In this document: positions 1-56,080 of the stretch, in pieces
Layout of the letters: every line of letters begins with the position of its first letter
How positions within the stretch are numbered: position 1 is the stretch's first letter
Assembly (NCBI GenBank): GCA_043797125.1
Contig: JAZDPX010000033.1
Span: 98,527-162,526, forward strand
Origin: Candidatus Omnitrophota bacterium
GTDB lineage: Bacteria > Omnitrophota > Gorgyraeia > JABMRG01 > JAFGKX01
Reading direction: 5' to 3'
DNA length: 64,000 bases
Notes under the pieces: generated by a model
Seen by the model: the letters and a program-made list of their open reading frames with translations, nothing else
What the model was told of the DNA's origin: nothing
Databases searched by the model: none
Translations under genes and position numbers: made by a program

Positions 1-92
1 CGAAAATCTCCAGTATTGGTTAATTGGTTAATTGGTTAATTGGTTAATTGGTTAATTAACCACTCACCACTCACCACTCACCAATTGACTAC
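1..92. repeat. Composite palindromic short-tandem-repeat unit: (ttaattgg)x5 then core 'ggttaattaacc' then (cactcac)x3; window starts inside it
   Basis: Direct reading: ttggttaattgg... x5, then ccactcaccactcaccactcaccaattg; the left and right halves are approximate reverse complements (ggttaattgg vs ccaattaacc). Confidence 0.9.
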
Positions 93-20064: not shown

Positions 20065-21953
20065 GAAAAACTTTTGCTTTTTTTGTAATATTCAGACCAC
20101 CAGACCGCAAAAACAAGCAATGTCCATATCTTCCTGTTGTTATCCTTTTTCCTTGAAAAATGTTCGTCAAGGATACTTTTCACATAGGAAATGTTAAATA
20201 ACCCTATGTTTCTTAGGTTTCTGTCGGATAAAACATCCATAACATAATCTTTAAGCTCCGAATAAATCCAGTTAGCTGCCGGCGGTGAGAAACCTTTCTT
20301 TTTAATTGTCGATATCCTGGCCGGAAGATAACGCCTGGCAAGTTTTCTGAATAAAATCTTTGTTGTCATCTTTCCTACTTTAAGGCGGGCAGGCACAGTT
20401 GCCGCAAATTCAATTATATCCCTGTCGCATAGAGGAACCCTCACCTCAAGTGAATGCGCCATGCTCATTCTGTCGGATTTTGTCAGTATGTCATCGAAAA
20501 GAAGCGTAGAATAATCGATAAACATCAGTTTATGCTCGGGCTCGCCAACGCCTGAAGCGTAAAAAAGCTTTTTGCAAAGATTAACTGCGCTCTGTTTCAA
20601 AACAACATCCTTAAGCTCGCCTCTAAGTAAATTCAGCTGCTCTTTTACGTCAAAAGGCGCCCTCCAGTATAGATGACTCTCATAGTCGCTAAGTTCAGCG
20701 CCCTGCACAAAACGCTTGGCCATAAAATCCAGCGTAATGCGGCCGAAAGATGTAGGCAGTTTTTCAATACCTGTCTTTAAATATTTTCTTAAAAAAGACG
20801 GCATTTTCATATAAATATTTTTAAGCGAAGGAGCGAAATAAGTAGGGTAACCGCCAAACAACTCGTCGCCGCCGTCTCCTGTAAGCGCGACCGTTACTTT
20901 TTGACGGGCAAGTTTTGACACAAAATAAAAAGGTATGGATGAATAGTCGGCAAAAGGCTCGTCGTAATGAACGCTGAGTTGCTTTAAAATCCCGCAATTT
21001 GGCTCAACTATCAGCTCGGCATGGTCGGTACCTATATGTTTAGCTATAAGGCGCGCTTCCTTTGTTTCGTCAAATGAGCGTTCCTTAAACCCTATAGAAA
21101 AAGTTTTCACGGGCTCACTCATATGTTTTGTCATAAAATAGACAACAAGCGACGAATCCAGGCCCCCTGATAAAAAAGCGCCCAAAGGCACATCGCTCAT
21201 AAGGTGGCTTTTTACTGTCCGCGAAATAATGTCCTCAAGCTTGTCTAAGGCATCTTCCTCGGTCATATCCCGCTTAATATCGTAACTTACATTCCAGTAT
21301 TGCTTTGTTGTTGCGCCATCGGGCGTTATTTTAATATAGCTGCCGGGCCTAAGTTTTTTTATATCCGTAAAAATGGAGTTATCTCCGGCAATATACATAA
21401 ATGACAAATAATTTGTCAGCGCTTCCAAGTCTATATCTGACTTAGGATGGCAAGCATGTATTGCCTTGATTTCAGAACCAAAAATTATCCTGTCGCTGTT
21501 CAGGCAGTAATAAAGCGGTTTTATACCGACATGGTCACGCCCAAGCAAAAGTATTTTTTTGCCGGCATCATATAAAGCAATGGCAAACATACCTCTTAAT
21601 TTTTCCATAAAACCTTCGCCGTATTGCTCGTAAAGATGCACTATGACTTCAGTATCAGAATGTGTATAAAAATTATGGCCCTGGCTTTTAAGCGTTTGGC
21701 GAAGCTCTCTAAAATTATATATTTCTCCGTTGCATATTGTTACTACGCTTTTGTCCTCATTATATATAGGCTGATGCCCGCCTTTAATATCAATTATGGA
21801 TAACCTGCGCATTCCGAGGCCCACGTTGCCGCGGCAGAAAAAGCCTTCGTCGTCAGGCCCGCGATGCGTAAGCGTTCTGGTCATCTGCTCTAAAACGCGG
21901 GAATTGACCGCTTCGTTTTTATTGTATGAATAAATACCGCATACTCCGCACAT
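20061..21953 (-). CDS. Asparagine synthase (glutamine-hydrolysing)-family amidotransferase
   Basis: N-terminal 'MCGVCGI' with nucleophile Cys2; 'FLSGGLDSS' PP-loop. Confidence 0.9.
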   Translation of the reverse strand: MCGVCGIYSYNKNEAVNSRVLEQMTRTLTHRGPDDEGFFCRGNVGLGMRRLSIIDIKGGHQPIYNEDKSVVTICNGEIYNFRELRQTLKSQGHNFYTHSDTEVIVHLYEQYGEGFMEKLRGMFAIALYDAGKKILLLGRDHVGIKPLYYCLNSDRIIFGSEIKAIHACHPKSDIDLEALTNYLSFMYIAGDNSIFTDIKKLRPGSYIKITPDGATTKQYWNVSYDIKRDMTEEDALDKLEDIISRTVKSHLMSDVPLGAFLSGGLDSSLVVYFMTKHMSEPVKTFSIGFKERSFDETKEARLIAKHIGTDHAELIVEPNCGILKQLSVHYDEPFADYSSIPFYFVSKLARQKVTVALTGDGGDELFGGYPTYFAPSLKNIYMKMPSFLRKYLKTGIEKLPTSFGRITLDFMAKRFVQGAELSDYESHLYWRAPFDVKEQLNLLRGELKDVVLKQSAVNLCKKLFYASGVGEPEHKLMFIDYSTLLFDDILTKSDRMSMAHSLEVRVPLCDRDIIEFAATVPARLKVGKMTTKILFRKLARRYLPARISTIKKKGFSPPAANWIYSELKDYVMDVLSDRNLRNIGLFNISYVKSILDEHFSRKKDNNRKIWTLLVFAVWWSEYYKKSKSFS

Positions 21954-26600: not shown

Positions 26601-26745
26601 CGAGGTTTACAAGTCTCCATCTTAATCCGATACAAATTATAGACAAAAGACAACCCGCACGCCTGGTAAAGGGCATGCCCTTTGTTTTGGCTGTGAAAGC
26701 TGTAAGCCTTTCTGCCAGCGTTGCCTTTTTATCCTTGGTGGACAT
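23629..26745 (-). CDS. Large multidomain glycosyltransferase (N-terminal TM region plus two GT-B-like modules); start uncertain
   Basis: GT4-like 'KVKIVHVTNHPGIEGTSMIRKAIDNLRDKGHDIDFVFLKGV' and a second Rossmann half near the C-terminus. Confidence 0.5.
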   Translation of the reverse strand: MSTKDKKATLAERLTAFTAKTKGMPFTRRAGCLLSIICIGLRWRLVNLAYRIIPLYKLQKLMGVVALGIKTIIKKSGNLYHRPFYTAANFFKILIIAIWWRIRNAIIKFSYRLKSSMLTLCKRFMLKPLYRFASHNFFMLMYPVNSLLAVALRNKKYKDSVLHISYMVHIPYYTTRILRRHGIKADYLAVGGKSPWWDKYDYNFYPVGPWQEFLFFWKVVARYEVIHSHFGIILSQTGWELPFLKLMGRKIVLHYRGCEARDPEKNKKLHPDVNICQHCDYEGWVCRKGKKRIQRIKKYVDISLVTTPDMKEFIPDAIHFPFFTPCIDYEKFRNRKAAFKAGEKVKIVHVTNHPGIEGTSMIRKAIDNLRDKGHDIDFVFLKGVTPEQALAEYRDADFSVGKLKMGYYANAQIESMFLDVPSITYARPEFMTQELRDSGFIFTSLKDLEKTLEFYITNPDEYEKKKLKARQSILKLHDNDKLSKQLLDIYGMKVAVTQNETNNIKRPFRVLHIGNIANNAYYNAKFLRREGVEADVLCYDNYWVMSSPEWEEADFEGTINDQQHPDWWRLNLRGYERPRWFAQGPFDLCVRYLAAKNLNMSKESEGLWLSLENARKIVCKTSYTQLLQKGKAVKKILQVPSVINRIIRILHDKTLIKLSAGLKARHDVYTFNGKPFHEKYLAHCSWLIDKFSKCFPDRPDRLTMDDLLPYEHRVSLLQGLFQHYDIIQGYATDPIFPILNVFHPYVAFEHGTLRDSPEIDWAYKGPFYDSPLSRLTALSYRMADYVFVTNTDCIQSAYRLGIENFELLPHPLDEENFSYQKEARNLINRTRNLDYIFFCPIRHDWQEKGVNRYIKILPRLRELIKGKFRVFFIPWGKEIQKSKHLINELGCNDLVEWVGPFGRVKLAQWLSAADVVLDQLVYPSFSGVTPRALACGAAVIVNYKPGDMDITFPEPPPVLSAQTEDEIIEQLFVALRPGFVSDHREKARFWIEKYHSSKQTLERMLAVYKGILAKKGTHDQYNQKFQEQMVPQQKVGVC

Positions 26746-28495
26746 ATTTTCTCCAAAGGCTAAACACAAATACATACCAGATGCGCGCAGCGTGCCCCGA
26801 GGCGCCGCGCGTAAAATCATCGAGCATAGCTTTTACATAATCAAAATTAAGCCATTCATAAATAGGGTTTCTTGCGTCCATTAGGTGCGATTCTATTATC
26901 GGTTGCAAGGGCCCGCGTAACCATTCAACAATGGGTATGCCAAAGCCCTGTTTCGGCCTTTCTATAAATGATGACGGGTAAAAACGCTCCGCGCTTTTTT
27001 TTAAAAGATATTTTGTCTTTATTCTTCCTAAGAAATTATTCCTTATGCGCAATGACAAAGGCAGTGTAAATGCCTGTTCGACGATTTTATGATCCAAAAG
27101 CGGCACCCGAACCTCAAGAGAATGCGCCATGCTCATTCTGTCAACTTTTGTAAGAACATCGCCCGGTAGATAGGTCTTAAAATCCTGCGCCTGAAAAAAT
27201 AACACCGGGTCGATATCAGTCTTTGTCTTAAGTGAAAAACTTATCCCCTCCGCAACAGGGAGATCGTTTGCAAAAAGCTCTTTAAGCATTGTTGTGTCGA
27301 AACCCTGCCGCTGCGCATTGTACAGCTGTCTGTGGCGCTCTTGCGGTTCGTCTATATTTTTATACGTATCCTGATAACTGTTATAGCCGCAGAAAAGCTC
27401 ATCTCCGCCATCACCTGAAAGGACCATCTTAACCGACTCGGCCGCTTCCTTTGAAACATAATACGTGGGTATGGCTGATGAATCCCCGAAAGGCTCTCCA
27501 AAATGCTGGGCTATTTTAGCGAACATCTCTTCTGCCAGTGTGGGGGTCACTATCTTTTCGTAATGGTCTGAGCCTATAAATACGCTCGCCTTTCGCGCGT
27601 AAGGGGTTTCCGAATGTTTCTGTTCACTAAACCCTATCGTAAATGTCCTTACGGGCTCCTTCATCTGTTTTGCCATAAGCGCGCTTACAAGGCTTGAATC
27701 AACACCACCGCTTAAAAAAGCCCCAAAGACAACGTCGCTTCTGACATACATCCGCATAGTTTCATCAAGAATGCCGTTTAAGTCATCAAGCCATTTTTCT
27801 TCTGTCTTCTCAGCAATGCCAGCTTCAATATCCCAATATTTAATATTTTCCCTCCTGCCGGTGATAGTATCTATCTCCAGATAATGACCGGGTTCAAGTT
27901 TATATATGTCTTCATAGATGGTAAGTGGTGCTGGTATATATTGATAGCGGAAATACTGGCACAAGCCACTGTGCGAAATCTTACGTTTAATATATGGCAA
28001 ACTAATAATAGGCAAAAGCTCAGAACAAAACACTGCGCATACAGGACTATAATAATAATACAACGGCTTGATTCCTACCCTGTCTCTGACAAGGTAGAGC
28101 TTACTCTTTGTGCTATTGTAAAGAGCAAAAGCAAACATCCCCCTAAAACGTCTGAGGCAATCAATGCCCCATTTTTCATATGAACGTAAAACAACTTCAG
28201 TATCCGATTCTGTTTTAAAATCAAATTCTGCCTTCAATTCTTCTCGCAGCTCAATATAATTATAGACCTCGCCATTATATGAAATAATTACGGTTTCACT
28301 ATCATTACATAAAGGTTGAGCGCCAAATTCAGGATCAATAATAGCAAGCCGGCTATGTGCAAGCCCAACACACTTATCTTGCCATATACCATTACCGTCC
28401 GGCCCGCGATGCACCAGCATACAATTCATTTTATCTAATTCATTGCGCTTAACTACCTTACCGTCAAAATTTACTATTCCAGCGATTCCGCACAT
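26729..28495 (-). CDS. Asparagine synthase-family amidotransferase (second copy)
   Basis: 'MCGIAGIVNFDG'; 'FLSGGVDSS'. Confidence 0.9.
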   Translation of the reverse strand: MCGIAGIVNFDGKVVKRNELDKMNCMLVHRGPDGNGIWQDKCVGLAHSRLAIIDPEFGAQPLCNDSETVIISYNGEVYNYIELREELKAEFDFKTESDTEVVLRSYEKWGIDCLRRFRGMFAFALYNSTKSKLYLVRDRVGIKPLYYYYSPVCAVFCSELLPIISLPYIKRKISHSGLCQYFRYQYIPAPLTIYEDIYKLEPGHYLEIDTITGRRENIKYWDIEAGIAEKTEEKWLDDLNGILDETMRMYVRSDVVFGAFLSGGVDSSLVSALMAKQMKEPVRTFTIGFSEQKHSETPYARKASVFIGSDHYEKIVTPTLAEEMFAKIAQHFGEPFGDSSAIPTYYVSKEAAESVKMVLSGDGGDELFCGYNSYQDTYKNIDEPQERHRQLYNAQRQGFDTTMLKELFANDLPVAEGISFSLKTKTDIDPVLFFQAQDFKTYLPGDVLTKVDRMSMAHSLEVRVPLLDHKIVEQAFTLPLSLRIRNNFLGRIKTKYLLKKSAERFYPSSFIERPKQGFGIPIVEWLRGPLQPIIESHLMDARNPIYEWLNFDYVKAMLDDFTRGASGHAARIWYVFVFSLWRKYVHQG

Positions 28496-30429: not shown

Positions 30430-31262
30430 AGTAAATCGCCGAACATTATTTTGAAGCGCGCAAATAACGCGTAACCCGCGCAGAAAACAAAAAGCGAGCC
30501 CGCGGGGAATATAAACCATGCCCAGGGGTGCTGGAACCCGCAAAAATAAAATATATCCTGATAGCACCAACTCATATAGCTAAAAGGATTAAGATACAAT
30601 ACGCCTTTAAATATTTTAGGCACCATATCAGGAAGATAAAAAACCGGCATAATATATAAGCCCGCAACGCAGAAAACCTGGACAAAGTCTTTGGTGTCGC
30701 GCAAATAAACGCCTAAAACCGAAAGAATATATGAAACCCCTGCCATGGCCATCAGCTGAAAAATAAAAACAACGGGTATTAAAATATGCATCCACGTCAG
30801 GCTGCCGGCCTTTGTAAAAACATACATCAGGAGTAAAAATGTAGCTACAAACTGCGTTATAGACGAGGCTATTACCCCTTTTACAGGAAGAACCTCTATG
30901 GGAAAAACTGTCTGCTTGACCAGGTTCGCGTTATTAATAATAACAGTACTGCTTTTTGCCATGGATTCCTGAAAACTCATCCACGGTATCAGGCCGCTTA
31001 AAAGATATGTTGTGTAATCAACCGGGAATGCGCCGCGCGAGGCTATCTTCACCTTAAAAACATAAACAAATATAAAAACATATATTGCCATCAATATCAA
31101 CGGATGGCCTATGACCCATAACCTTCCGAATACCTGGCCTGCATATCTGTCCGATATTTCGCGGCGGGTCATCTCCCAGGTAAGCTGCCTGTATTTTGTA
31201 AGCAGGCTCACTATTTCCCTGAAGGCCTGAAAATGTTTCTTGAGATCAAACAACCTTTTCAT
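30426..31262 (-). CDS. wzm: ABC-2 type transporter permease, Wzm-like
   Basis: 6 TM helices, ABC-2 family architecture, translationally coupled to wzt. Confidence 0.8.
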   Translation of the reverse strand: MKRLFDLKKHFQAFREIVSLLTKYRQLTWEMTRREISDRYAGQVFGRLWVIGHPLILMAIYVFIFVYVFKVKIASRGAFPVDYTTYLLSGLIPWMSFQESMAKSSTVIINNANLVKQTVFPIEVLPVKGVIASSITQFVATFLLLMYVFTKAGSLTWMHILIPVVFIFQLMAMAGVSYILSVLGVYLRDTKDFVQVFCVAGLYIMPVFYLPDMVPKIFKGVLYLNPFSYMSWCYQDIFYFCGFQHPWAWFIFPAGSLFVFCAGYALFARFKIMFGDLL

Positions 31263-33042
31263 CTTCTAAAAATATCCTGTTCCACCATTCAAAACAAAGC
31301 AGGCTCCATATAAGAAGCCTGTGGTTTACTTTGCCTGAAATGTGTTCTGTTATTATTTTATTTATATACGCAGGTTTAAAATAGCCGCGATTCAGCGTCC
31401 TTTTATCTAAAATGATCTTTTTCACGTAATCAATAGATTCTCCCCTATACCAGGAAGCGTCAGGCGGGCTGAAACCCTGTTTTCTTTTTTCAATGATTCT
31501 TTTTGGAAGATATTTACTCATAGCCTTTCTTAAAATAAATTTTCCGGAGCCGCTGTTATGTTTGTATTCAGGCGGTATCTTCACGCTAAGCTGTAGCAGC
31601 TCTTTGTCTAAAAATGGCAGCCTTGCCTCCAGCGAGTTAGCCATGCTTATCTTGTCTTCTATAACAAGCAGGCCATGCAAAAAAGTCTTCAAGTCAAAAT
31701 AAAAAGCCCTGTTAAATGAGGCCTCGTTGTTTGAATTTTTTACTATATCTTTATAAATGTCATACGTCGCCAACCCCTTTATTTTTGACCAGGCCTGACC
31801 GCTAAAAAACTTCTTCTTATCCTCATCCGGCATAAGCCTGAGCCAATAACGATAATATTTATCGTCAAATTTATCAATATTTTTGCAGTCTTTGATTAAT
31901 TCGTAGCGCCAAGGGTAACCTCCGAAAATCTCGTCTCCCCCGCCGCCTGTTAACACCACTTTGACAAACCTGCTGGCAAGCTGCGCAACATAGAAATTCT
32001 GATAGCACATACCCACCCTTAAGTCCTCGAGATGCCACACAAGTTTTGGCATTATATGCTGCATATCGCCCGAATGTATCACCATCTCATAATGAGTTGT
32101 ATGAAAACGCCTTGCTATTGCTTCTGCGTCCTTTCTTTCGTCAAAGACCATCTCCATGCCGGATGCCGACGTAAGGTCAAATCCTCCGGTAAAGGTCATC
32201 AAGCGCGGTATCTTAGCGGATGCCACGGCAACTATTGATGCCGAATCCATCCCGCCGCTTAGATAACTGCCTATCGGGACATCGCTTATTAAGTGACGGA
32301 TAACACTTTTCTCAAACACATCTAACACCTTTTTGGTATATGCTTTTTCGCTTAATCTTTCTTCATCAAAGACGATATCCCGATATTGTTTTTGCTCTAA
32401 GCCTTCCTTTGTAACAACCAGCATATGTCCCGGAGAAAGAAGCTTAACGCCCTCAAAAAGAGTTCTGTCCGTAAATATATTCTGAAAGGTAAAATATTCG
32501 CCGAGCGCTTCCAGGCATATCTTTTTTGTGAAATCATTAAGCTTAAAGAACGCTTTTATTTCCGATGCAAAAGAAAATTGCCTGTTCTTGTAGTAGTAAT
32601 ACAGCGGCTTTGTGCCGAATATGTCTCTTGCTAAAAAAAGTCTTTCTTTTTTCTTGTCTCATATCGCAAATGCGAATTCGCCGTTAAATTTCTGAAGACA
32701 TTCTTCGCCCCATTCTTCGTAGGAATGGATAATAACCTCTATGTCTGTCTTGGAACTGAACCTGTGGCCTTTTGATTCCAGTACAGATACCAATTCAAGG
32801 TAATTATATATCTCTCCGTTAGCGATAAGAAAAATATTTTTATCTTCATTGGGCATGGGTTGCCTGCCCAAAGAAGAAAGGTCTATTATTGAAAGCCTCC
32901 TGTGGGCCAGGCCGATATTTTTGTCAATATACTCGCCTTTGTCGTCGGGGCCGCGGTGTTGTAAGGCCTCGGACATACCGTTTATCTGAGCACAGGATAT
33001 GCTTTTATTATCCAGATTATAAATGCCTGCTATACCGCACAT
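31246..33042 (-). pseudogene. Asparagine synthase-family gene (third copy) interrupted by a single in-frame TGA at 32659-32661; otherwise full length and collinear
   Basis: N-terminal fragment ends '...GEFAFAI*' and the same frame continues 'DKKKERLFLARDIFGTKPLYYYY...' into the 392-aa ORF; the stop sits where paralogs have Y/W (FAFALYD / FAIALYD). Confidence 0.75.
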
Positions 33043-35634: not shown

Positions 35635-36576
35635 CTAATTTTTAAATTTAAACCATTCTATGGTCTTGGCCAAGCCTTCCTGCAGATTTACTACAGGCTG
35701 CCAGTTAAGCTTTTCTTTTGCTTTGCTTATATCAGGCCTTCTGATTTTCGGGTCATTTACCGGAAGCGTTTCGTATACTATTTTGCTTTTCGAGCCGGTT
35801 AGTTTAATAATTTTATCCGCCAGCTGCAATATAGTCATCTCCGCGGGGTTTCCTATGTTTACTGGCTCATTAAGTCCGGAATTCATTAGTTTATATATGC
35901 CTGCCACCATATCCGATATATAACAAAAACTTCTGGTTTGAGAACCGTCGCCGTAGACGGTAATAGCCGCGCCTTTTAAAGCCTGGTCGATGAAATTTGG
36001 TATGGCCCTTCCGTCGCTTTTTCGCATTCTCTCGCCGTAAGTGTTAAATATCCGGATTATCTTGGTATCTATTTTATGGACACGGTGATAAGCCAGGGTT
36101 ATCGCTTCCGCGAACCGCTTTGCTTCGTCATATACGCCGCGCGGGCCTGTCGGGTTTACGTTACCCCAATAGCTCTCCGGCTGGGGGCTAACTAATGGGT
36201 CGCCGTATACCTCGGATGTGGATGCCAGCAAAAATTTGGCTCTGTATTTCTTGGCAACCCCGAGGGCGTTATGCGTGCCTAAAGAACCGACCTTTAACGT
36301 CTTTATTGGATATTTTAAATAATCTACCGGCGACGCGGGCGAAGCGAAATGAAGGACATAATCAACTTTTTCTTTTAACCTTATTTCTTTGGTGACATCA
36401 TGCTTTATGAATTTAAAGTTTTTATCTCCCAAAAGGTGCTTTATGTTTTTTTTGCTGCCGGTTACCAGGCTGTCCATGCACATTATTTTGTGGCCTTTTT
36501 TAATTAAAAAATCGCATAAGTGCGAGCCGATGAAACCGGCGCCTCCGGTAATGAGTATTTTCATGAAAAACTCCAT
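35635..36576 (-). CDS. UDP-glucuronate decarboxylase (UDP-xylose synthase)-like SDR
   Basis: '[20 protein letters not shown]...[19 protein letters not shown]...IFNTYGERM', typical of the UXS/ArnA-decarboxylase family. Confidence 0.75.
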
Positions 36577-36578: not shown

Positions 36579-36618
36579 TGGTTAATTGGTTAATTGGTTA
36601 ATTTGTTAATTGGTAACT
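36579..36618. repeat. Left arm of composite repeat (ttaattgg tandem array) flanking the four-helix-bundle gene
   Basis: ttggttaattggttaattggttaatttgttaattggtaact. Confidence 0.9.
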
Positions 36619-36989
36619 GATTCCAGCTTTTTGCCTTTAATATATTTAATGTAACCATTTAATTTTTTTAAAACCATATACCCTTCATGTTTAAGTTTTT
36701 CTATACAATCCGTATCTATATAACTTTCATCCACACAAATATTCAAATCATCAATTAGTTCTTCAAGAGATCCTCTAGACTGCCTTAAGAACTGTATATT
36801 TTCTTGATAATGATACCTTCCGTGTCCTTCAGCTATATTATTTGTTAACGATACTGCTGCTCTGCGCATTTGTCTAATTAGATTATACTCTTCTTCCTTG
36901 GGTAATTTATTTGTCAGCTTATAGATTTTCTTCCTATATTCTCGTGCTAGATTATAAGCATCCAATCTTTCAAAACTATATTCGTTCAT
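36606..36989 (-). CDS. Four-helix-bundle protein (23S rRNA intervening-sequence protein family; homologous to DGR Avd proteins)
   Basis: 'ERLDAYNLAREYRKKIYKLTNKLPKEEEYNLIRQMRRAAVSLTNNIAEGHGRYHYQENIQFLRQSRGSLEELIDDL'; the ORF caller used a TTG at 37010 inside the repeat, the ATG at 36989 is more likely. Confidence 0.85.
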   Translation of the reverse strand: MNEYSFERLDAYNLAREYRKKIYKLTNKLPKEEEYNLIRQMRRAAVSLTNNIAEGHGRYHYQENIQFLRQSRGSLEELIDDLNICVDESYIDTDCIEKLKHEGYMVLKKLNGYIKYIKGKKLESVTN

Positions 36990-36995
36990 TTTCTG

Positions 36996-37041
36996 CTCAC
37001 CACTCACCAATTAACCAATTAACCACTCACCAATTAACCAG
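36996..37041. repeat. Right arm of composite repeat (cactcac / ccaattaa arrays), reverse-complement-like to the left arm
   Basis: ctcaccactcaccaattaaccaattaaccactcaccaattaacca. Confidence 0.9.
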
Positions 37042-37043: not shown

Positions 37044-38114
37044 TCAATTTTTTATCTTTAAACTCGTGAACACCCCGAAATCCGGCGCTGCGCCGTTTGT
37101 ATTCTCATCAATGGCAATCTGCCAGGAAATTTTATCATTAAAATTATGATTAAAACCCAATGTCAAAACGCCGGGATCATGGTCTGTGGCCGGAACTCCT
37201 CCGTCATATACTGTCGTATTAGCCGTAAACTGAAAAAGCATTGAAGTCTTATCCGTCAAAAAATATTCAAGGCCCAAAGCACCGTGCAGCATTTCTTTCT
37301 TAAATACATCTAAATTACTTAATATGTCAGGCTTATCAACAAAAATATAATTCATGTTTAAGAATACAAAGAACCTTTTAAATAAACTTTTATCGAGTAA
37401 TATTCCTGCGGCATAATCAAATTTTTTACTTCCCAATAATTCATCTTTGGCAGTAGGAAATTTCACAGCTGCCCGTAAAGAAGCTGTGGGAACCCACTTA
37501 TTTTCATCTAATATTTTATATTTTAGGTATGCGGAAACCTCGCCAAAATCATTCGCCTCTGAAGTGCTAAAAATATAAGGGTTTCCCTTGTTTCTTATTT
37601 CGTATTCATAATTGTATTTTTCTGTTTCTTCTCTCGCGTTGGGAGTTTTTATAAATGAAAAAGAACGTTCAAAATTTTCAATAAAGCTGTCAAGGTAGCC
37701 TCCCGAAAAAATATAGTATGGCATATCGAGACTGATTTCCATATCATCCAAAATTCCGTATGAAAGGTTTGCGTCTACTCTATTTACCTCGGTGTCTACA
37801 TAAACCCACCATTCCCTATCCTTTTCGGTAACGCCACCAAACTGCTGCCCGGGCCAGGGCCTCTGATGTACTACGATATTGGAAACATGGTAAGAAGCGT
37901 CGACTCTTATCTTGCCCTTTTTTAGGGTTTGCGCCTTATCTAGTGTTGGCGACATATAAAATAAATATAGAGGCATCTGGTTGCGCACGTTCAGGGGGCC
38001 TACGGCTTGGTATTTGTTTTCTTCAGCAAAAATAGCTGTGGGCTGTGAGCTGTGGGCTGTGAGCAAAAATACAAAAAAGGCAACTATGGTTGAAATTTTA
38101 TTTTTCATATGCAT
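37044..38114 (-). CDS. Secreted hypothetical protein, possible outer-membrane beta-barrel; N-terminus carries a 14-nt tandem duplication
   Basis: Signal peptide 'KISTIVAFFVFLLTAHS'; alternating hydrophobic pattern; duplication agctgtgggctgtg x2 at 38034-38061. Confidence 0.4.
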   Translation of the reverse strand: MHMKNKISTIVAFFVFLLTAHSSQPTAIFAEENKYQAVGPLNVRNQMPLYLFYMSPTLDKAQTLKKGKIRVDASYHVSNIVVHQRPWPGQQFGGVTEKDREWWVYVDTEVNRVDANLSYGILDDMEISLDMPYYIFSGGYLDSFIENFERSFSFIKTPNAREETEKYNYEYEIRNKGNPYIFSTSEANDFGEVSAYLKYKILDENKWVPTASLRAAVKFPTAKDELLGSKKFDYAAGILLDKSLFKRFFVFLNMNYIFVDKPDILSNLDVFKKEMLHGALGLEYFLTDKTSMLFQFTANTTVYDGGVPATDHDPGVLTLGFNHNFNDKISWQIAIDENTNGAAPDFGVFTSLKIKN

Positions 38115-40389: not shown

Positions 40390-41336
40390 AGATTCTTTTT
40401 CCTTTCTCTTAAATACCTTGTTAAAGCATCTTTCCAGTCTGCTAAACTGCTGCCATGTATTTTGAAAAAAAGTGTATTATCCAATATTGACATCTTCGGC
40501 CTTTTTGCCGGCCTGTCTAGTTGGTCCGATGATATAGGAATAACTTTTATATCCTCTTTACCTGCCTGGTTAACAATCTCTTTTGCGAACTCATACCACG
40601 AGCATGAGCCGGAGTTGGTAACATTTAGAATGCGGCTATTGGTTAATTGGTTAGTAGTTAATTGGTAACTGTCTACAATATCCGCTATCGCCTTTGCTAA
40701 ATCAACTGCATACGTCGGCGAACCAACCTGGTCATTCACAACTTTTATCCGCTTCTGCGTTTTAGCTTTCTCCAATATCGCTTCTACAAAATTCCTGCCT
40801 CCGGCCCCAAACAGCCAGCTTGTCCTTATGATTAAATAATTATCCAATTCACCCCTGACGGCATTTTCGCCTGCGAGTTTGGTTTTTCCATAAATGCTTA
40901 TCGGGTTTGGCATATCCTGTTCGCTGTAGGGCGAGGCCTTCTCTCCGTCGAAAACAAAATCAGTGCTTATGTATATCATGGACGAAGAGGCGAGTTTGCA
41001 CCCTTCTGCTATTATGGCTGTAGCTTGCGTATTTAGGTTGTGAGCTTTTTCAGGATTTAGCTCGCAGCCGTCAACATCGGTATATGCGGCGCAGTGGATT
41101 GTGATGTCGGGGCTTATCTGTTTGATTTTTTGCAGCGCCAAAACTCTGTCAGTTAGGTCAAGTTTGTGAAAAGCTGTTGGCTTTGGGCTACCTGCCCCGC
41201 ACCTGAACGAAGTGAATGGTGCGGGGTGGGCTATGGGCTCCCTAACATCAATCCCGACAACTTCATGCTCAGGCGCTAATTTTCTGCACAACGCCTGACC
41301 CAACATGCCGCTTGAACCAGTAATAAGTACTCTCAT
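40386..41336 (-). CDS. rfbD: dTDP-4-dehydrorhamnose reductase (RfbD/RmlD) carrying two in-frame insertions
   Basis: 'MRVLITGSSGMLGQAL...' N-term; 'RPAKRPKMSILDN' C-term. Insert 1 is a GC-rich hairpin ccccgcacc/ggtgcgggg at 41195-41226; insert 2 is the ttaattgg-family repeat at 40639-40671. Confidence 0.75.
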   Translation of the reverse strand: MRVLITGSSGMLGQALCRKLAPEHEVVGIDVREPIAHPAPFTSFRCGAGSPKPTAFHKLDLTDRVLALQKIKQISPDITIHCAAYTDVDGCELNPEKAHNLNTQATAIIAEGCKLASSSMIYISTDFVFDGEKASPYSEQDMPNPISIYGKTKLAGENAVRGELDNYLIIRTSWLFGAGGRNFVEAILEKAKTQKRIKVVNDQVGSPTYAVDLAKAIADIVDSYQLTTNQLTNSRILNVTNSGSCSWYEFAKEIVNQAGKEDIKVIPISSDQLDRPAKRPKMSILDNTLFFKIHGSSLADWKDALTRYLRERKKNL

Positions 41337-41350: not shown

Positions 41351-41432
41351 TTGGTTAATTAGTTAATTGGTTAATTAGTTAATTAACCACTCACCAATTA
41401 ACCACTCACTAACTTCACCACTCAATTATCCT
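41351..41432. repeat. Composite palindromic repeat unit (ttaattgg/ttaattag array, core gttaattaacc, cactcac array); 'empty' copy
   Basis: ttggttaattagttaattggttaattagttaattaaccactcaccaattaaccactcactaacttcaccactc. Confidence 0.9.
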
Positions 41433-42407
41433 CGCTCTTTGCTTCAACGGCTTCCACCACCGGCTGTTATTCTTATACCAGCCTATTGTCAAATCCAGGC
41501 CCTCATTAAACGAATACTTCGGCCTCCAGCCCAACTTTTTAATTTTACCGGAATCAAGCGCGTAACGCCTGTCATGCCCAGGCCTATCGGTTACAAATTT
41601 TATATAGCTATCCCTAAGGCGCAGTTTCTTTAAAAGGGCCCCTGCCATATCAATATTGCGTATTTGGGTCCTGGTGCCTATATTGTAAATTTCGCCAATT
41701 TTCCCATTTTTTAAAATACATTCTATGCCGCGGCAGTTATCCTCAACAAATAGCCAGTCGCGTATATTTTTGCCGTCGCCGTACAAAGGCAGTTTTTTGC
41801 CCCCAAGAAGATTGGTGATAAACAACGGCATCACCTTTTCCGGATACTGATAGGGGCCGAAGTTGTTTGAGCTTCTTGCTATTACAACCGGTAATCCAAA
41901 TGTATGATAATAACTAAGGCATAATAAATCAGCTGCTGCTTTTGACGCTGCATACGGAGAATTAGGCAAAAGCGCGTCTGTCTCTTTTGAAAAACCTGAT
42001 TTTATGTCTCCGTACACTTCATCTGTCGAGATCTGCATGAATTTTTTTATTTTGTATTTTCTGGCTGCCTCAAGAAGAACCCTTGCGCCTTCGATATTTG
42101 TTTTTATAAAAGCCCCGGCGTCTTTAATCGAGCGGTCCACATGCGTCTCTGCCGCGAAATTAATTATGGTCGATGGTCGATGGCCAATGGTCGATAGTAA
42201 ATTATTCACTAATTTTGAATCGCAAATATCGCCTTTTACGAATTTATAGCGTTTATCACTTTTGGTATCTCTTAAATTGTTTAGGTTGCCAGCATAAGTG
42301 AGCTTATCAAGATTTATGATTTTAATATCCCTATATTTTTTAAGCATGTATCGAATGAAATTGGACCCGATAAACCCGCATCCTCCGGTTACTAATATAT
42401 TTTTCAT
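41415..42407 (-). CDS. rfbB: dTDP-glucose 4,6-dehydratase (RfbB/RmlB) with an in-frame heptamer-array insertion
   Basis: 'ILVTGGCGFIGSNFIRYML...FAAETHVDRSI...YAASKAAADLL'; array ggtcgatggtcgatggccaatggtcgat at 42168-42195 encodes 'STIGHRPSTI'. Confidence 0.9.
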   Translation of the reverse strand: MKNILVTGGCGFIGSNFIRYMLKKYRDIKIINLDKLTYAGNLNNLRDTKSDKRYKFVKGDICDSKLVNNLLSTIGHRPSTIINFAAETHVDRSIKDAGAFIKTNIEGARVLLEAARKYKIKKFMQISTDEVYGDIKSGFSKETDALLPNSPYAASKAAADLLCLSYYHTFGLPVVIARSSNNFGPYQYPEKVMPLFITNLLGGKKLPLYGDGKNIRDWLFVEDNCRGIECILKNGKIGEIYNIGTRTQIRNIDMAGALLKKLRLRDSYIKFVTDRPGHDRRYALDSGKIKKLGWRPKYSFNEGLDLTIGWYKNNSRWWKPLKQRARIIEW

Positions 42408-42417
42408 CTTTTTACCA

Positions 42418-42445
42418 CAGACTATAGACTATTGACTATAGACCC
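42418..42445. repeat. Heptamer tandem array (gactata family), intergenic between rfbB and degT
   Basis: cagactatagactattgactatagaccc. Confidence 0.9.
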
Positions 42446-43570
42446 TGCGGCCTCCTTTATTACTTTAATCACATGCCCCATCTGCTTCCTGCCAAGCTCC
42501 GGATACACGGGTATAACAAAAGTTCCTTTAGAACAATTCTCCGCTTCCGGAAAATCTCTCTTCTTATATCCTAAATACTTAAAACAAGGCTGAAGATGCA
42601 AGGGCACAGGATAAAATGTCCTTGAATCTATGCCCTTGCCAATAAGATATGCTCTTATCTTTTCTTTGTTTTCCGTTGCCCTTAAGACATACTGGTGATA
42701 TATGTGGGTATTGCCCTTGGCAACATATGGCGTAATAAGACTTAAATCTCTTAAAGCGCTATTATAATAAGCTGCGTTTTGCGCGCGCTTTTTATTCCAT
42801 TTATCTATGTGTTTTAATTTCACCCTTAAGACAGCTGCTTGAATGGAATCCATCCTGTGATTATGTCCTATGCGCAAGTGCACATATTTATCTTGCGGCG
42901 AAGCGCCCTGATTTCTTAGTAATTGTAATTCTTCTGCAATGGCCTTATTATTAGTAACTATACAACCCGCGTCGCCAAACGCGCCTAAGTTTTTACCGGG
43001 ATAAAAACTTACAGTCCCGCAATCGCCTATTGTGCCTGCCTTTTTACCTTTCTGGCTTGCGCCGAAACTCTGAGCAGTATCTTCTATAACTTTCAAATTA
43101 TTCTTTTTTGCAATCTTCATTATCGCATCCATATCAGCGCACTGGCCGTATAGGTGGACTGGGATTATGGCCTTTATAGTATTGAGTATTGAGTATTGAG
43201 TATTGAGTAAAATCTTTTCGATGGAATCGATAGAAATGTTATAGGTTTTAGCGTCGATGTCCGCAAAAACAGGCACAGCCCCGATAGCCGCCACTGCGCC
43301 TGCGGTCGCGTAATATGTAAAAACCGGGCAAATAACTCCGTCGCCCTCTTTTATGCCTAATGCCTTAAGCGCAAGAAAAATAGCGTCTGTGCCGTTTGAG
43401 ACTGCGACTGCATATTTTACCTTGCAATAGGCGGCTATTTCTTTCTCAAGAAGCCTGACTTCTTCTCCAAGTATAAAACTGCCTGAATCAATAACTCTCT
43501 TTACAGCAGAGTCTATTTTCTCTCTAATAGGCTTTGTCTGCGTTTCCATATCCAACAATGGTATCTTCAT
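42422..43570 (-). CDS. DegT/DnrJ/EryC1/StrS-family PLP-dependent sugar aminotransferase (WbpE-like) with in-frame (gtattga)x4 repeat
   Basis: '...AIIPVHLYGQCADMD...' and an active-site Lys region; repeat at 43179-43206 encodes 'NTQYSILNT'. Confidence 0.9.
   Translation of the reverse strand: MKIPLLDMETQTKPIREKIDSAVKRVIDSGSFILGEEVRLLEKEIAAYCKVKYAVAVSNGTDAIFLALKALGIKEGDGVICPVFTYYATAGAVAAIGAVPVFADIDAKTYNISIDSIEKILLNTQYSILNTIKAIIPVHLYGQCADMDAIMKIAKKNNLKVIEDTAQSFGASQKGKKAGTIGDCGTVSFYPGKNLGAFGDAGCIVTNNKAIAEELQLLRNQGASPQDKYVHLRIGHNHRMDSIQAAVLRVKLKHIDKWNKKRAQNAAYYNSALRDLSLITPYVAKGNTHIYHQYVLRATENKEKIRAYLIGKGIDSRTFYPVPLHLQPCFKYLGYKKRDFPEAENCSKGTFVIPVYPELGRKQMGHVIKVIKEAAGSIVNSL
43179..43206. repeat. 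Perfect heptanucleotide tandem repeat (gtattga)x4 inside the degT-like CDS
   Basis: tagtattgagtattgagtattgagtattgagtaa. Confidence 0.9.
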
Positions 43571-44305
43571 TCTGTTGCCTTTCTTGCCACAAGATTATTT
43601 GCTCTAAGAAGGGAATCAAAAGTCCCTGAATCGGTCCAAAAACCATTCAGCTTATCATAGCTCATCTGGCCCAGGTTTATATATTTGTTATTTACATCCG
43701 TAATTTCCAGTTCGCCTCTTTTAGAGGGTTTGAGTGTTTTTATGATATCGAATACCTTCTTATCATACATATAAATCCCCGTAACGATAAAATTGGTGAG
43801 CGGCCTTTTGGGCTTTTCCGTGATATTCAATATTTTACCGTTTTTAAACTCAACCACGCCGAAACGCCCGGGATCAGGCACTTCCTTTATCAATATCCTG
43901 GCGCCATTTTTTTGACTTCGAAATTTATTCACCGAAGCCTTTATAGACTCCTCGACTATGTTATCGCCGAGGATTACCACTATCTTGCCGCCGTCGGCAA
44001 AGTCCTGCGCCAGGCGAAGCGCGTCCGCTATGCCGCCTTCCCCTTTCTGATAAGTATATTCGATGTGCTTTAATCCGAATTCTTTGCCGCTTCCTAAAAG
44101 CCGCAGGAAATCCCCGGCATTATTTCCGCCCGTAACAATTAATATTTCCGTTATTCCAGCATCAACTAAGGTTTGAATAGGATAGTATATCATCGGCTTG
44201 TTGTAAACTTAGCTAATGCAAAAGGTGTTTGTTACAAACCGTAGTTAAAGGATAAAGTCTCGAACCTAATCCTCCACATAAAATAACACCTTTTGTCATT
44301 GGCAT
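43567..44305 (-). pseudogene. rfbA: Glucose-1-phosphate thymidylyltransferase (RfbA/RmlA) disrupted near codon 30 by a 7-nt insertion giving TAG/TAA stops and a frameshift
   Basis: Upstream frame 'MPMTKGVILCGGLGSRLYPLTTVCNKHLLH*' (GGGGGTG SD before ATG at 44305); frame +1 continues '*VYNKPMIYYPIQTL...'; an intact gene would read HLLP-VYNKPM, and 'cattagctaa' replaces a single codon. Confidence 0.7.
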
Positions 44306-44314
44306 CACCCCCTT

Positions 44315-45340
44315 TTATTTTGAAACTTGCTTTTTAAACCTTTTAGTATCCGCAAGTTTCTTTATTTTTTGAAATAGAATAAATTTACGCGGTAAATAAA
44401 CGTCTGTCGATCTTAGGCCTCCATAAATAAAATTCCCTAATTTCACTGTATCCTCAAATCCATATCTTAATTCAAAACAGTTTGGCGTTCGTTTATAGAT
44501 AGTCCCCCGCCGTGTAGGCATTATATTGTGCATCCATTTTAGCACTTCATAGTTAGAGCTGGTAACCATAGATTTATAAATATCATTGCTGACATGATAT
44601 GCAAAGCAACCATCTCCATCAAAATATCCTCTTACAAAATCATGATAAATATTTTTTGGCATATTTAATGGATATAACCTTAAAGGCTTCTTTGGGATTA
44701 CCCCCAATTTTAATAAATCATTGTTTATCTCGTTAGAGCTGAATTCCAATCTAAAATATTTGCCATTTTCGTAACTTCTTATAGGTTTATTGCTTTGAAA
44801 AACTAAATTTATCTTTTCTAACAAAACTTTGTCCTTTGTGGCAAACATCAATTTTCCTTCCCTGCTTACACAACCATCAGCACAAATGTACCCAAGTAAA
44901 TATGCGGTTTTGCTATTAAGGGATTTAAATATATCTCTGCTATAGTTATAAATACGATTATAGCTGCGGCCTTTCATCTTTCTGCTGTGCTCCCTTTTGC
45001 CCCTTTCTGCCTGCATGTAAAATTTACCTTTTTGTGCCGCTATAATAGCCGCCTGCTTTCTGCTTCTCAATTTTATATTCCGTTGCCTTAAGCATCTTTT
45101 GATTCTATTAACGCTATAACCTGACGTTCTTGAAATTTCAGATAATGAAAATTTCCTTTTCACATACAAGTAGACTATTTTATTAATATTGCTGCTTTTT
45201 CTTCTGTTGTGGCCAATAATATACTTTTTACTTAGTCCAACATCTTTATTGCAACCACATGCGCAACTATGGACGCTATAACTCTTTTCCTGTTTTTTAA
45301 TTTTTCCTCCAGTCATAATCAATATCGTTATCAAACGCAT
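44315..45340 (-). mobile_element. Free-standing double-motif LAGLIDADG homing-endonuclease gene between rfbC and rfbA
   Basis: Two dodecapeptide motifs 'AYLLGYICADGCVS' and 'FVRGYFDGDGCFAY'; Cys cluster 'HSCACGCNKD' and basic HTH-like N-terminal region; overlaps the rfbC start by 44 nt. Confidence 0.75.
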
Positions 45341-45746: not shown

Positions 45747-45759
45747 TTTATAACCTCCT

Positions 45760-45794
45760 CAACTATCGACCATCGACTATTGACTATCAACTAT
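45760..45794. repeat. Heptamer tandem array, intergenic rfbC/ugd
   Basis: caactatcgaccatcgactattgactatcaactat. Confidence 0.9.
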
Positions 45795-45795
45795 A

Positions 45796-47091
45796 TTATC
45801 TCCTCCCTATACACACGTATTGAAAACCTAAATCTCTCATTCGCTCGGGTTCAAACATATTTCTGCCGTCTATGATAACCGGCTGGTTAAGCAACCTTTT
45901 TATTTTTTTGAAATCAAGATTCTCAAATTCTTTCCACTCCGTAATGATAACCAGGCAATCACACCCTTTTGCAAGGGAATACGGGTCTTTGGAAAACTCA
46001 ACCATAGAAAGCTCGATTTTGGCCCTTCCCATAGCCTTTGGATCATAGGCCTTTATGCGCGCGCCTTCTTTTTGCAGCATCCTTATTATATCCAGGCAGG
46101 GGGCTTGTCTTATGTCATCTGTATTTGGCTTAAACGCTATGCCCAATATTCCTATGGTCTTATTGTTTAAATTCCAGAGCGCAGATTTTATCTTCTCTAC
46201 AAAAAAGGCTCTTTGCGCCTGGTTTACCTTTGCGATTATCTTTAATATTTCAGGGTTGTAGCCTAAGTTTTCCGCTATGTGTATAAAGGCGGCCAGGTCC
46301 TTTGGAAAGCAAGAGCCGCCGTAACCTATTCCCGCATTCAAAAATTCTTTATTTATTCTTGTGTCCAGGCCCATGCCTTGCGCAACCTTTTTTACATCAG
46401 CCCCGCATAAATCGCATATCCTCGATACAGCGTTGATAAACGATATCTTCAAAGAGAGAAATGAATTAGAGGCGTGTTTTATTATTTCGGCGCTCTCTAT
46501 GTCGGTTACAACTATTTGTGCCTTAAGCGGCTTGTATAATTGCCTTAGAATCTTTTCTGCCTTTTTGCTCTGCACGCCTATAACAATCCTGTCCGGGCGC
46601 ATGAAATCCTTGATAGCCGAACCTTCCCTTAAAAATTCAGGGTTTGAGGCTATGTCAAATTTTACTTTTTTGTTTTTACAGGCGTTAAGCGTATGTGCGA
46701 CCCACCTGCCGGTTTCAACAGGCACTGTGGACTTTTCAACGATAAGCTTATACGACTTCATGTGCCTGGCAATAACAGCGGAAACATTTTCCACTGCCGA
46801 TAGGTCTGCCGCGCCTTTTTCTTTCGGCGGCGTGCCTACTGCAATAAATATAATCCTGGCAAATTTAACGCCGTCTTCTATTTTAGATGAAAAAAAGAGC
46901 CTTTTCCTGCTCACGCTTTTCTTAATAAGAGACGCTAATCCAGGTTCGTATATCGGTATCTCTCCGTTTTGTAGGGCTTTTATCTTTTCAATGTTTTTAT
47001 CAACGCACATCACCCTGTTTCCCAGCTCGGCGAAACACGTACCCGTTACCAATCCCACGTATCCGGTTCCTATAACAGCAATTCTTTCCAT
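45796..47091 (-). CDS. ugd: UDP-glucose 6-dehydrogenase
   Basis: 'MERIAVIGTGYVGLVTGTCFAELGNRVMCVD' and catalytic Cys region 'GYGGSCFPKD'. Confidence 0.9.
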   Translation of the reverse strand: MERIAVIGTGYVGLVTGTCFAELGNRVMCVDKNIEKIKALQNGEIPIYEPGLASLIKKSVSRKRLFFSSKIEDGVKFARIIFIAVGTPPKEKGAADLSAVENVSAVIARHMKSYKLIVEKSTVPVETGRWVAHTLNACKNKKVKFDIASNPEFLREGSAIKDFMRPDRIVIGVQSKKAEKILRQLYKPLKAQIVVTDIESAEIIKHASNSFLSLKISFINAVSRICDLCGADVKKVAQGMGLDTRINKEFLNAGIGYGGSCFPKDLAAFIHIAENLGYNPEILKIIAKVNQAQRAFFVEKIKSALWNLNNKTIGILGIAFKPNTDDIRQAPCLDIIRMLQKEGARIKAYDPKAMGRAKIELSMVEFSKDPYSLAKGCDCLVIITEWKEFENLDFKKIKRLLNQPVIIDGRNMFEPERMRDLGFQYVCIGRR

Positions 47092-53039: not shown

Positions 53040-53045
53040 AGAGAG

Positions 53046-53090
53046 TATAAAGTTTAAAGTGTTAAGTGTAAAGTCAAAAGCGTAAAGTTA
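53046..53090. repeat. Heptamer-periodic array (NNaaagt)x6, intergenic
   Basis: gtataaagtttaaagtgttaagtgtaaagtcaaaagcgtaaagtt. Confidence 0.8.
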
Positions 53091-55710: not shown

Positions 55711-55809
55711 ATAATAATAGATACATTTAGTATAGGAGGTATAGTAGCATATCGGGGATAAAAGGCAAGGAAATTCTCTCAAATCCTATGTTAATTCTCA
55801 CTGTATCTA

Positions 55810-55964
55810 AAGCCTTTGCATGCCTTGCCTTCGCTTGTCACTCGCTCAGAGAATTTTTCGCCTTCGGCGAAAGGCGCTCTTCGCTCGTTGTGGCAAAAAT
55901 CGCTCACTAATCGCCGGGTTTTCGCGATTTTTGACAGTCGCTTCGGCAAAGCATGCAAAGGCTT
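55810..55964. repeat. GC-enriched element with nested inverted repeats (outer 14-bp perfect IR aagcctttgcatgc / gcatgcaaaggctt)
   Basis: Outer IR at 55810-55823 and 55951-55964; inner hairpins cgccttcggcgaaaggcg and caaaaatcgc...gcgatttttg. Confidence 0.7.
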
Positions 55965-56080
55965 CTTCTGCGCCTGTAAATTACCATAGGGATTCTCGTT
56001 CATGGCGGGAAAATATTTGTTTAACGGTGGGCAACAGCTAAATCTTCCGCTATTGTTTTTTCGGCAATGCCCAAAGGCTT

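Follow-up and report, generated by a model that had tools for sequence, protein, structure and literature searches.

A four-helix-bundle gene enclosed by complementary tandem-repeat arms in an Omnitrophota operon: a probable intervening-sequence-like cassette

The closest described systems to the element considered here are the intervening sequences (IVSs) of 23S rRNA that carry an open reading frame (ORF), such as those of Coxiella burnetii (S23p) and Leptospira. These IVSs combine an S23p ORF with a 28-bp terminal stem, are excised by RNase III and are suspected of mobility; they lie in the sense orientation in the host transcript, are distributed sporadically with suspected horizontal transfer and also exist in ORF-less, hairpin-only forms (PMC4990558). 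The Coxiella S23p itself is reported to be decaying and not synthesised in vivo (PMC4990558). The element under study occupies positions 36579-37041 of a 64-kb stretch (hereafter the window) of a 174-kb contig from a Candidatus Omnitrophota bacterium, and contains a gene for a four-helix-bundle (4HB) protein of the same family. It shares with the ORF-bearing rRNA IVSs the protein family, the enclosure of the ORF in terminal complementary sequences, the sense orientation, the sporadic distribution and the existence of ORF-less forms. Unlike them, it is located in a spacer between protein-coding genes and not, in place of a tetraloop, in helix 9, 25 or 45 of 23S rRNA, and its arms are tandem arrays of 7-9-nt units; its ORF, unlike the Coxiella S23p, is under strong purifying selection. 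No Rfam families, LSU rRNA included, were matched in the window, and because the cassette is not located in rRNA it is not an rRNA IVS in the strict sense. We consider it probable, at about 0.6, that the element is a discrete inserted cassette of the IVS type, in which a promoterless PF05635 4HB gene is carried within complementary tandem-repeat arms in an operon spacer, and of which ORF-less hairpins represent the cargo-free form. Such cassettes are apparently a widespread and undescribed relative of the rRNA IVSs; no description of a tandem-repeat-arm architecture around PF05635 genes was found in the open-access literature, an absence that is no proof of novelty.

Other systems share single features with the cassette. 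The four-helix-bundle fold is also that of Avd, the accessory protein of diversity-generating retroelements (DGRs; structures 4DWL and 8UB7), and the family cd16375 takes in both Avd and the proteins encoded by 23S rRNA IVSs, PF05635 being read as Avd-like (PMC10053308). Unlike Avd, the window protein (9-11% identical) has no adjacent reverse transcriptase (RT) and no template or variable repeats in the window. Arrays of 7-8-nt units in spacers with a patchy cross-phylum spread are likewise known as TAACTGA-type intergenic direct repeats, which lie a few nucleotides from start codons in Beggiatoaceae, Cyanobacteria and Bacteroidetes and have no known mechanism (MacGregor 2015, PMC4679880). Those repeats are direct and have no linked gene, whereas the cassette is a palindromic array pair able to enclose a 4HB ORF. 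The closest solved structures, XCC0516 (2GSC) and BT_0352 (2RLD), are structural-genomics members of the 'S23 ribosomal protein' family with no function or genomic-context analysis attached. In REPIN-RAYT systems, said to have been described by Nunvar in 2010 and by Bertels and Rainey in 2011, a gene is reportedly flanked by an inverted short repeat that is also common as gene-less palindromic intergenic doublets; this resembles the cassette in that a gene stands between inverted repeat copies that also occur gene-less in spacers. The cassette differs in its cargo, a 127-aa helical bundle (PF05635 only) and not an IS200/IS605-like Y1 transposase, in the presence of several 4HB paralogues per genome with different arms, and in arms that are tandem arrays and not single REP hairpins.

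The cassette and the genes that border it comprise the following features.

37044..38114, minus strand: upstream host gene, DUF3187 (domain match and orthologue comparison)
36996..37041, minus strand: 5' arm, on the coding strand GGTTAATTGG TGAGTGG TTAATTGG TTAATTGG TGAGTGG TGAG
36606..36989, minus strand: 4HB gene, ATG at 36989, 127 aa plus stop, PF05635/TIGR02436
36579..36614, minus strand: 3' arm, on the coding strand CCAATTAA CAAATTAA CCAATTAA CCAATTAA CCAAG
36562..36574, minus strand: Shine-Dalgarno sequence (GGAG, 36571-36574) and likely true epimerase start (ATG 36564, MKILITGG), from orthologous junctions
35635..36564, minus strand: downstream host gene, NAD-dependent epimerase/dehydratase (domain match and orthologous junctions)

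The order on the coding strand is the DUF3187 stop, the 5' arm, the 4HB ORF, the 3' arm, GGAG and the epimerase ATG. The 5' arm starts 3 nt past the DUF3187 stop (TGA) and ends 6 nt short of the 4HB ATG; on the plus strand this region is a mix of CACTCAC and CCAATTAA units, i.e., a (TGAGTGG/GGTTAATTGG)n arm. The 3' arm reads (TTAATTGG)n on the plus strand, complementary to (CCAATTAA)n on the coding strand. Its end lies just upstream of the epimerase Shine-Dalgarno sequence and start, both of which are retained; judging by the orthologous junctions described below, the epimerase gene likely starts at ATG 36564 rather than at the called 36576. A preliminary description of this DNA, made from the sequence alone, had placed the gene between two repeat halves and given the protein 128 aa. 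The arms do flank the gene, but the 3' arm overlaps its end, as the last three codons and the stop (GTT ACC AAT TAA, VTN*) are encoded within the CCAATTAA array, and the protein has 127 aa. A perfect complement of 20 nt exists between the 3' and 5' arms. In the predicted fold of the sense transcript the arms pair around the ORF (−118.5 kcal/mol, z −6.2), in the minimum free energy (MFE) and centroid folds alike; the window cassette is, like the ORF-bearing IVSs, an S23p-family ORF within a predicted stable stem.

The same arm types occur in the window without the gene.

15..92, minus strand: ORF-less composite hairpin at the window edge, on the coding strand (TGAGTGG)3 GGTTAATTAACC (AATTAACC)n
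41351..41432, minus strand: ORF-less composite hairpin in the rmlB-rmlD spacer, composed of the unit types found in the cassette arms
40639..40671, minus strand: array of diverged CCAATTAA-type units, in frame within rmlD (YQLTTNQLTN), from Tandem Repeats Finder (TRF) and structure comparison

Both composites have the layout array, GGTTAATTAACC, ACTCACC/CCAATTAA array, the two arm types being fused head to head around the perfect palindrome GGTTAATTAACC. The 16-mer TTAATTGGTTAATTGG, with two mismatches allowed, gave 10 matches in the window, all within the cassette and the two composites, against 0.21 expected from shuffled sequences. TRF and the repeat search assigned the three sites to the same families at 64-91% identity. 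This agrees with the earlier proposal that the 4HB gene sits inside a repeat that also exists empty; the arms around the gene, which might have proved unrelated to the contiguous copies, align with them. The sense strands of the composites fold at −32.0 and −29.3 kcal/mol, against −21.0 and −24.4 kcal/mol for the antisense strands, and the sense-strand fold of the 41351-41432 hairpin has a z-score of −6.1. The array inside rmlD (rfbD in the preliminary description) is real and coincides with a loop about 8 residues longer than in the RmlD structure 1vl0; as one short array, it lends little weight to the accompanying idea that the arms move into coding DNA.

The junction of the DUF3187 and epimerase genes was compared among relatives carrying DUF3187 orthologues of 57-68% identity, together with their gene contexts. 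The order UDP-sugar dehydrogenase, epimerase, DUF3187, epimerase is conserved, and the junction occurs in at least five states (loci of other genomes are given by L numbers).

L211/L212 and L215/L216: state a, no insert (stop, 8 nt containing AGGAGA, ATG)
L213/L214: state b, ORF-less palindrome of 80 nt, (AAGTTAAA)n facing (TTTAACTT)n, between stop and Shine-Dalgarno sequence
Window: state c, 4HB cassette
L220/L221: state d, a different 4HB gene (36% identical) with its own mutually complementary arms GGTAAAGGTAGAGGCAAAGGTGAAG / CTTTACCTTTACCTTCACCTTTACC
L219: state e, 4HB gene of a third type, its arms being AGGTTACA/GTAACCT, together with an MNT-HEPN pair; a further 4HB gene lies upstream of DUF3187
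L217: state f, MNT-HEPN pair alone, no arrays

The downstream Shine-Dalgarno sequence and start are kept in every inserted state, and the arm units of L220/L221 (GGTAAAGGTAGAGG.../...CTTTACCTTTACC) are wholly unlike those of the window. From this series it follows that the cassette is an insertion relative to the orthologous loci, that the arms accompany 4HB cassettes and not any inserted gene, and that, by the same comparison, ORF-less hairpins of this kind occupy equivalent sites. The suggestion of insertion or mobilisation in the preliminary description is thereby supported, the orthologous junctions being uninserted, hairpin-only or filled with other 4HB cassettes. Pairs of MNT (nucleotidyltransferase) and HEPN-type (NTase_sub_bind / HepT-like) genes were observed at L217 1118-1805, L219 4172-4835 and L215 6670-7715. 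The first two lie at the DUF3187-to-epimerase junction and the L215 pair lies further downstream, past the epimerase; inspection of the flanks of the L217 pair found no repeat arms around it.

Beyond this junction, homologues with 75-82% amino acid identity and the same arm design occur in unrelated operons, which also speaks for mobilisation. Host operons include proA-[4HB]-nadD (L011) and rnfC-[4HB]-rnfD...rnfA-[second 4HB, different arms]-rnfB, and a further cassette lies downstream of glyA. At other junctions the downstream products were read as SucD, SdhB and PyrG (N-termini by eye, not by hidden Markov model). In annotation of Flavobacterium columnare, a gene for a four helix bundle protein likewise stands between gmk and nadD (PMC5524665). 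Several cassettes have ORFs that are 90.7-92.6% identical in nucleotide sequence and both flanks without detectable similarity (L134/L136 versus L121/L137/L138; L153 versus L159). Between L134 and L121, the homology runs from about 40 nt before the ATG, inside the 5' arm, through the ORF and stops near the 3' tail, being limited to the 5' arm and the ORF. Judged by these alignments, the arms and the ORF move as one unit into operons that are unrelated. In the rnfC-rnfD cassette (L121 1634-1850), about 160 nt with GC-rich hairpins (cacccctgcaaaagcaggggt, ggattcccgcttccgcgggaat) lie between the 4HB stop and the 3' arm; this stretch looks like a further small element nested in the cassette.

The generality of the arms was assessed on a protein-based sample chosen blind to the flanks, consisting of 80 metagenome loci with relatives of 54-82% identity, 61 of them non-redundant. 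Nearly all sampled loci have a short-unit array just before the ATG, and the reverse complement of that array starts at the stop codon or immediately downstream of it. Duplex folding of the 100-nt flanks gave z < −3 in 32 of the 61 loci; the fixed window of this measure leaves out arms that lie further away, and direct arrays confound it, so the duplex energies were replaced by an ungapped complement score with cross-locus controls. A score of at least 14 was reached by the own flanks of 39 of 61 loci against 15 of 120 cross-locus pairs (12.5%), with medians of 15 and 9, respectively. Neighbouring genes are co-oriented with the 4HB gene in 52 of 60 cases upstream and 45 of 53 downstream, by crude ORF calls.

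The arm units differ by lineage and include GGTTAATT with TGAGTGG, GGTTAAAT, GGTTGATT, GTAACTG, AGTTAACT, CGTTGAAT, CGTGAATC, AGCGTTGA, GTTACAA and others. The unit sequence varies between cassettes while complementarity within a locus is maintained; in these loci each 4HB lineage thus has its own arm sequence, with 5'/3' complementarity kept. Paralogues at one locus also differ in their arms: TGAGTGG/TTAATTGG versus CTAAAGTGA (L121), GGTTGGAGG versus AGTTAACT (L153), TTAATTAATGAA versus GTGAAAT (L162) and GGAGAAGAGGAGAC versus CCAATTAA (L006). The presence of stop codons in all frames was considered as a rule for arm units; it is true of TTAATTGG, TGAGTGG and GGTAAAGG-type units and fails for AGGTTACAA units.

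The 4HB protein matches PF05635 over the full profile (1-106/106; 105.2 bits, cut-off 33.8, E 2.7e-30), as the preliminary description had expected, and TIGR02436 with 101 bits (cut-off 24, E 4e-29); by these matches the gene belongs to PF05635. An AlphaFold2 model based on 25 homologues (pLDDT 90.6) has four long helices, and the modelled fold is the up-down four-helix bundle of 2GSC and 2RLD. The top Foldseek match in the PDB was XCC0516 (2GSC; 36% identity, TM 0.85/0.92), followed by BT_0352 (2RLD; 21%, TM 0.76/0.89) and, as the third-best family, DGR Avd (4DWL; 9%, TM 0.74/0.87, rmsd 1.6 Å); further matches were Avd chains in the DGR ribonucleoprotein (8UB7 and related entries). The Avd-like fold anticipated for the protein is thus seen in the model. 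A query with the protein returned 6026 homologues at E ≤ 1e-10, and 34 positions are invariant in the alignment, among them those of the EGHG and RGS..E..DD motifs. Values of dN/dS between cassettes are 0.03-0.14, which means that the 4HB protein is under strong purifying selection. On the evidence of dN/dS and the invariant positions the protein is functional, unlike the decaying Coxiella S23p; by analogy with Avd it may act on nucleic acid, perhaps on its own arms. No match to PADLOC defence families was obtained for it at E ≤ 0.01. Homologues end in C-terminal tails such as PINQLTN, INQLTT and VNHLTN, which are the translated CCAATTAA array, and such arm-encoded tails, like the mis-called start of the neighbouring gene (36576 versus 36564), can be flagged as annotation artefacts. 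The small proteins of PF05635/TIGR02436 make up a very large family with no assigned function outside DGR Avd, and the reproducible genomic signature described here (an arm-enclosed ORF, insertion between stop and ribosome-binding site in housekeeping operons, cargo-free hairpins) offers testable biology for it.

The arm sequence was also followed independently of the protein. At least 120 loci (L001-L120) of a species-representative genome collection contain an exact copy of the 18-mer GGTTAATTGGTTAATTGG. Among the matches listed, these are mostly from Bacteroidota, and others come from Ignavibacteria, Phycisphaerae, Omnitrophota, Verrucomicrobiota, Kiritimatiellae, Moraxella, a cyanobacterium and one Nitrososphaerales (archaeal) contig. 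In the listed matches the 18-mer always lies within tandem 8-mer arrays, some of them palindromic composites with short spacers; TTAATTGG-type arrays reach dozens of units and mix the variants TTGATTGG, TTAACTGG and TTAAATGG. A 4HB gene is found within 8 kb in 11 of the 120 listed loci, most of these genes directly abutting the array, so TTAATTGG arrays also exist alone. Other cargo between inverted TTAATTGG arms in the listed loci was a 115-aa ORF without a Pfam match (L060), FixH (L118) and DUF2461 (L015), the latter two being probably ordinary genes between two separate arrays. In L060 (6355-6910, a Phycisphaerae metagenome-assembled genome), 13 TTAATTGG-type and 10 complementary units surround a 344-nt spacer. 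The 115-aa ORF, which matched neither Pfam nor the 4HB profile, may be a different or very divergent cargo. The proposed cassette would explain one class of cross-phylum intergenic octamer arrays.

Under the reading as an IVS-like cassette, the element would have no promoter of its own and would depend on that of the host operon for transcription. Its arms would pair in the RNA into a stem of at least 20 bp that isolates the ORF from the flanking cistrons, and this stem would be a likely RNase III substrate, as in rRNA IVSs, which are cut out without religation. Both arms (about 35-45 nt each) are common to the filled and empty forms, which could therefore interconvert by recombination or gene conversion through them, or by microhomology deletion; if TTAA/AATT microhomology led to a deletion between the arms, the central GGTTAATTAACC of the empty hairpins would be the expected remnant. 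As to direction, the ORF may have entered a pre-existing empty palindrome, or the empty hairpins may be cassettes that lost the ORF. On this reading the ORF-bearing rRNA IVSs, a 30-year-old puzzle, may belong to a wider class of cassettes embedded in transcripts, for which rRNA is one habitat.

Several observations weigh against this interpretation or its generality. Strong purifying selection is unexpected for a purely parasitic ORF, unless the protein serves the element. Recombinase, transposase or RT genes are not associated with the cassette, and in the comparison of filled, empty and uninserted junctions a target-site duplication is unreadable because the arms are themselves repeats and the spacer is too short; hence no mobility mechanism is in evidence. 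The 80 protein-selected loci represent one broad subfamily, and the extension to wider PF05635 rests on extra examples from Bacteroidota and Omnitrophota. In the 120 listed loci, TTAATTGG arrays are about ten times commoner than adjacent 4HB genes. In about one-fifth of loci the arrays on the two sides of the ORF run in the same orientation, or the arrangement is A-A'-ORF-A', and not that of a simple stem around the ORF (L126, L006, L059, L075, L143). A wobble test on the sense strand counted 64 G.U and 69 A.C among the non-Watson-Crick arm positions, which gives no support for pairing in the sense RNA; the complementarity could accordingly be DNA-level or a by-product of the making or homogenisation of the arms. 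Cleavage of the arms by RNase III is proposed entirely by analogy.

A broader proposal may also be considered, tentatively. PF05635 genes with their arms could constitute a large family of autonomous hairpin cassettes extending across phyla, of which the classical ORF-bearing 23S rRNA IVSs would be the rRNA-resident special case. Each 4HB protein would recognise its own arm stem (as RNA or single-stranded DNA) and promote the maintenance or spread of the cassette, perhaps together with a reverse transcriptase or recombination function of the host, in the way that Avd serves the DGR RT, and the ORF-less spacer hairpins would be non-autonomous derivatives acted on in trans.

It is also conceivable, if rather doubtful, that the 4HB protein is a regulator, i.e., a trans-acting RNA- or DNA-binding factor for which the arms are autoregulatory sites and the ORF-less arrays before starts are targets for control of translation or coupling. 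The cassette-specific arm sequence, which follows the protein lineage even within one locus, the strong purifying selection and the position of empty arrays immediately upstream of Shine-Dalgarno sequences or start codons are consistent with such a role. The nearest characterised structural relative, Avd, is an accessory of the DGR RT ribonucleoprotein (PDB 8ub7; PMC10053308), and a similar post-transcriptional role has been proposed for TAACTGA repeats (PMC4679880). However, regulation leaves unexplained the repeated insertion of the gene into unrelated housekeeping operons and the several unrelated versions at one junction; the correlation of arm and protein is confounded with phylogeny, and the TTAATTGG arrays of many phyla mostly have no 4HB gene within 8 kb in the 120 listed loci.

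An unlikely explanation is that the palindrome matters at the DNA level only, the arms having arisen from the insertion or replication mechanism (fold-back, template switching, slippage or gene conversion of inverted arrays) with no role in RNA. The lack of a G.U excess over A.C on the sense strand and the homogenisation of units within arrays agree with this, and the L213 array unit is similar to the upstream gene's 3' end, hinting at a local origin by duplication. Against it, the strict placement between stop and Shine-Dalgarno sequence, the co-orientation with the host operon and the ORF stop within the arm are regularities of the transcript, and the empty hairpins fold better on the sense than on the antisense strand.

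That the 4HB gene merely happens to lie between two ordinary repeat-bearing spacers of a repeat-rich genome is very improbable. The window does contain at least five heptamer arrays of the GACTATA/GACCATC type in other operon spacers, plus other arrays, but the heptamer arrays all face the same way and show no relation to the arms, whereas the arms are complementary to each other and match the two empty composites. In addition, relatives have an 8-nt spacer at the same junction, an MNT-HEPN insertion there has no arrays, and the arm-ORF-arm arrangement recurs in 39 of 61 independent loci against 12.5% of the cross-locus controls.

Equally hard to credit is an orphan or distal DGR component, i.e., an Avd whose RT is encoded elsewhere. 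The Avd-like fold (TM 0.74/0.87 to 4dwl) and the union of Avd and IVS proteins in cd16375 (PMC10053308) point in this direction. However, no RT domain was found in any ORF of at least 110 aa in the window, which agrees with the absence of an RT noted previously; the RT and integrase scans covered such ORFs in 64 kb of the 174-kb contig. The repeat search of the window returned short arrays and paralogous asnB segments only, with no pair resembling template and variable repeats (TR/VR). Since both are lacking in the window, the window 4HB gene is, as far as its sequence context tells, not a DGR component; moreover, identity is 9-11% to Avd versus 36% to 2gsc, and the homologues stand singly within housekeeping operons. 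Least likely of all is an integron-type gene cassette with arms acting as attC-like folded recombination sites, for which the small, promoterless, co-oriented ORFs with imperfect palindromes and the resemblance of some units (GTTAAAT, GTTGAAT, GTTGAAC) to GTTRRRY, the core of integron recombination sites, could be cited, but there is no integrase or attI in the window, the cassettes stand singly in scattered, unrelated operons and form no arrays, the two halves of the palindrome lie on either side of the ORF rather than behind it, and many units (GGTTAATT, GGTGAGT, GGTAAAG) depart from the core.

Almost all genes of the window are on the minus strand. According to domain searches of the window ORFs, the region of about 800-47,000 is one long polysaccharide-synthesis cluster with carbamoyltransferases, glycosyltransferases, radical-SAM proteins, methyltransferases, asparagine-synthase paralogues, Wzm/Wzt, rmlABCD, UDP-sugar dehydrogenases and epimerases. 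Two asparagine-synthase paralogues are intact (20061-21953 and 26729-28495). A third, asparagine-synthase-like gene is in two pieces (31246-33042), with GATase at 32659-33042 and Asn_synthase at 31246-32424 separated by a 234-nt gap, and is a possible pseudogene. Between rmlC and rmlA (region 44194-45340) there is a free-standing 341-aa ORF with a LAGLIDADG domain (44315-45340). The N-terminus of rmlA (MPMTKGVILCGGLGSRLYPLTT) is out of frame with the remaining rmlA (43567-44193), so the gene is frameshifted or mis-assembled. In the L219 relative, an intein with LAGLIDADG lies within the epimerase gene. Operon spacers in these genomes are hot spots for small selfish genes, namely 4HB cassettes, MNT-HEPN pairs and LAGLIDADG genes.

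The heptamer arrays form a second repeat family, unrelated to the arms (GACTATA/GACCATC on the plus strand; TAGTC/TGGTC-type on the coding strand), and are located at 774-824, 42407-42443, 45747-45798, 56081-56117 and 59127-59163. Each lies in an operon spacer immediately before a start codon or Shine-Dalgarno sequence, and these arrays resemble the TAACTGA-type intergenic direct repeats (PMC4679880). An inverted heptamer array inside the rmlB coding region (42165-42198), about 210 nt past the start, is complementary to the array of the rmlB 5' spacer (42407-42443), and from their sequences the two could pair around the rmlB start. The long non-coding spacers 250-365, 55783-56080 and 62749-63063 are full of short GC-rich hairpins (gggttcgatttatcgaaccc, ggcgccataaatggcgcc, gcccaatttattgggc), unlike the AT-rich arrays, and have no Rfam match. 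A 15-nt unit, CCAGTTTTTTCCCAG, is repeated four times (57488-57547) in a 1007-aa ORF (56115-59138) without a Pfam match, and an array of the AGTGTAA/AGTATAAAG type occupies the spacer 53040-53087.

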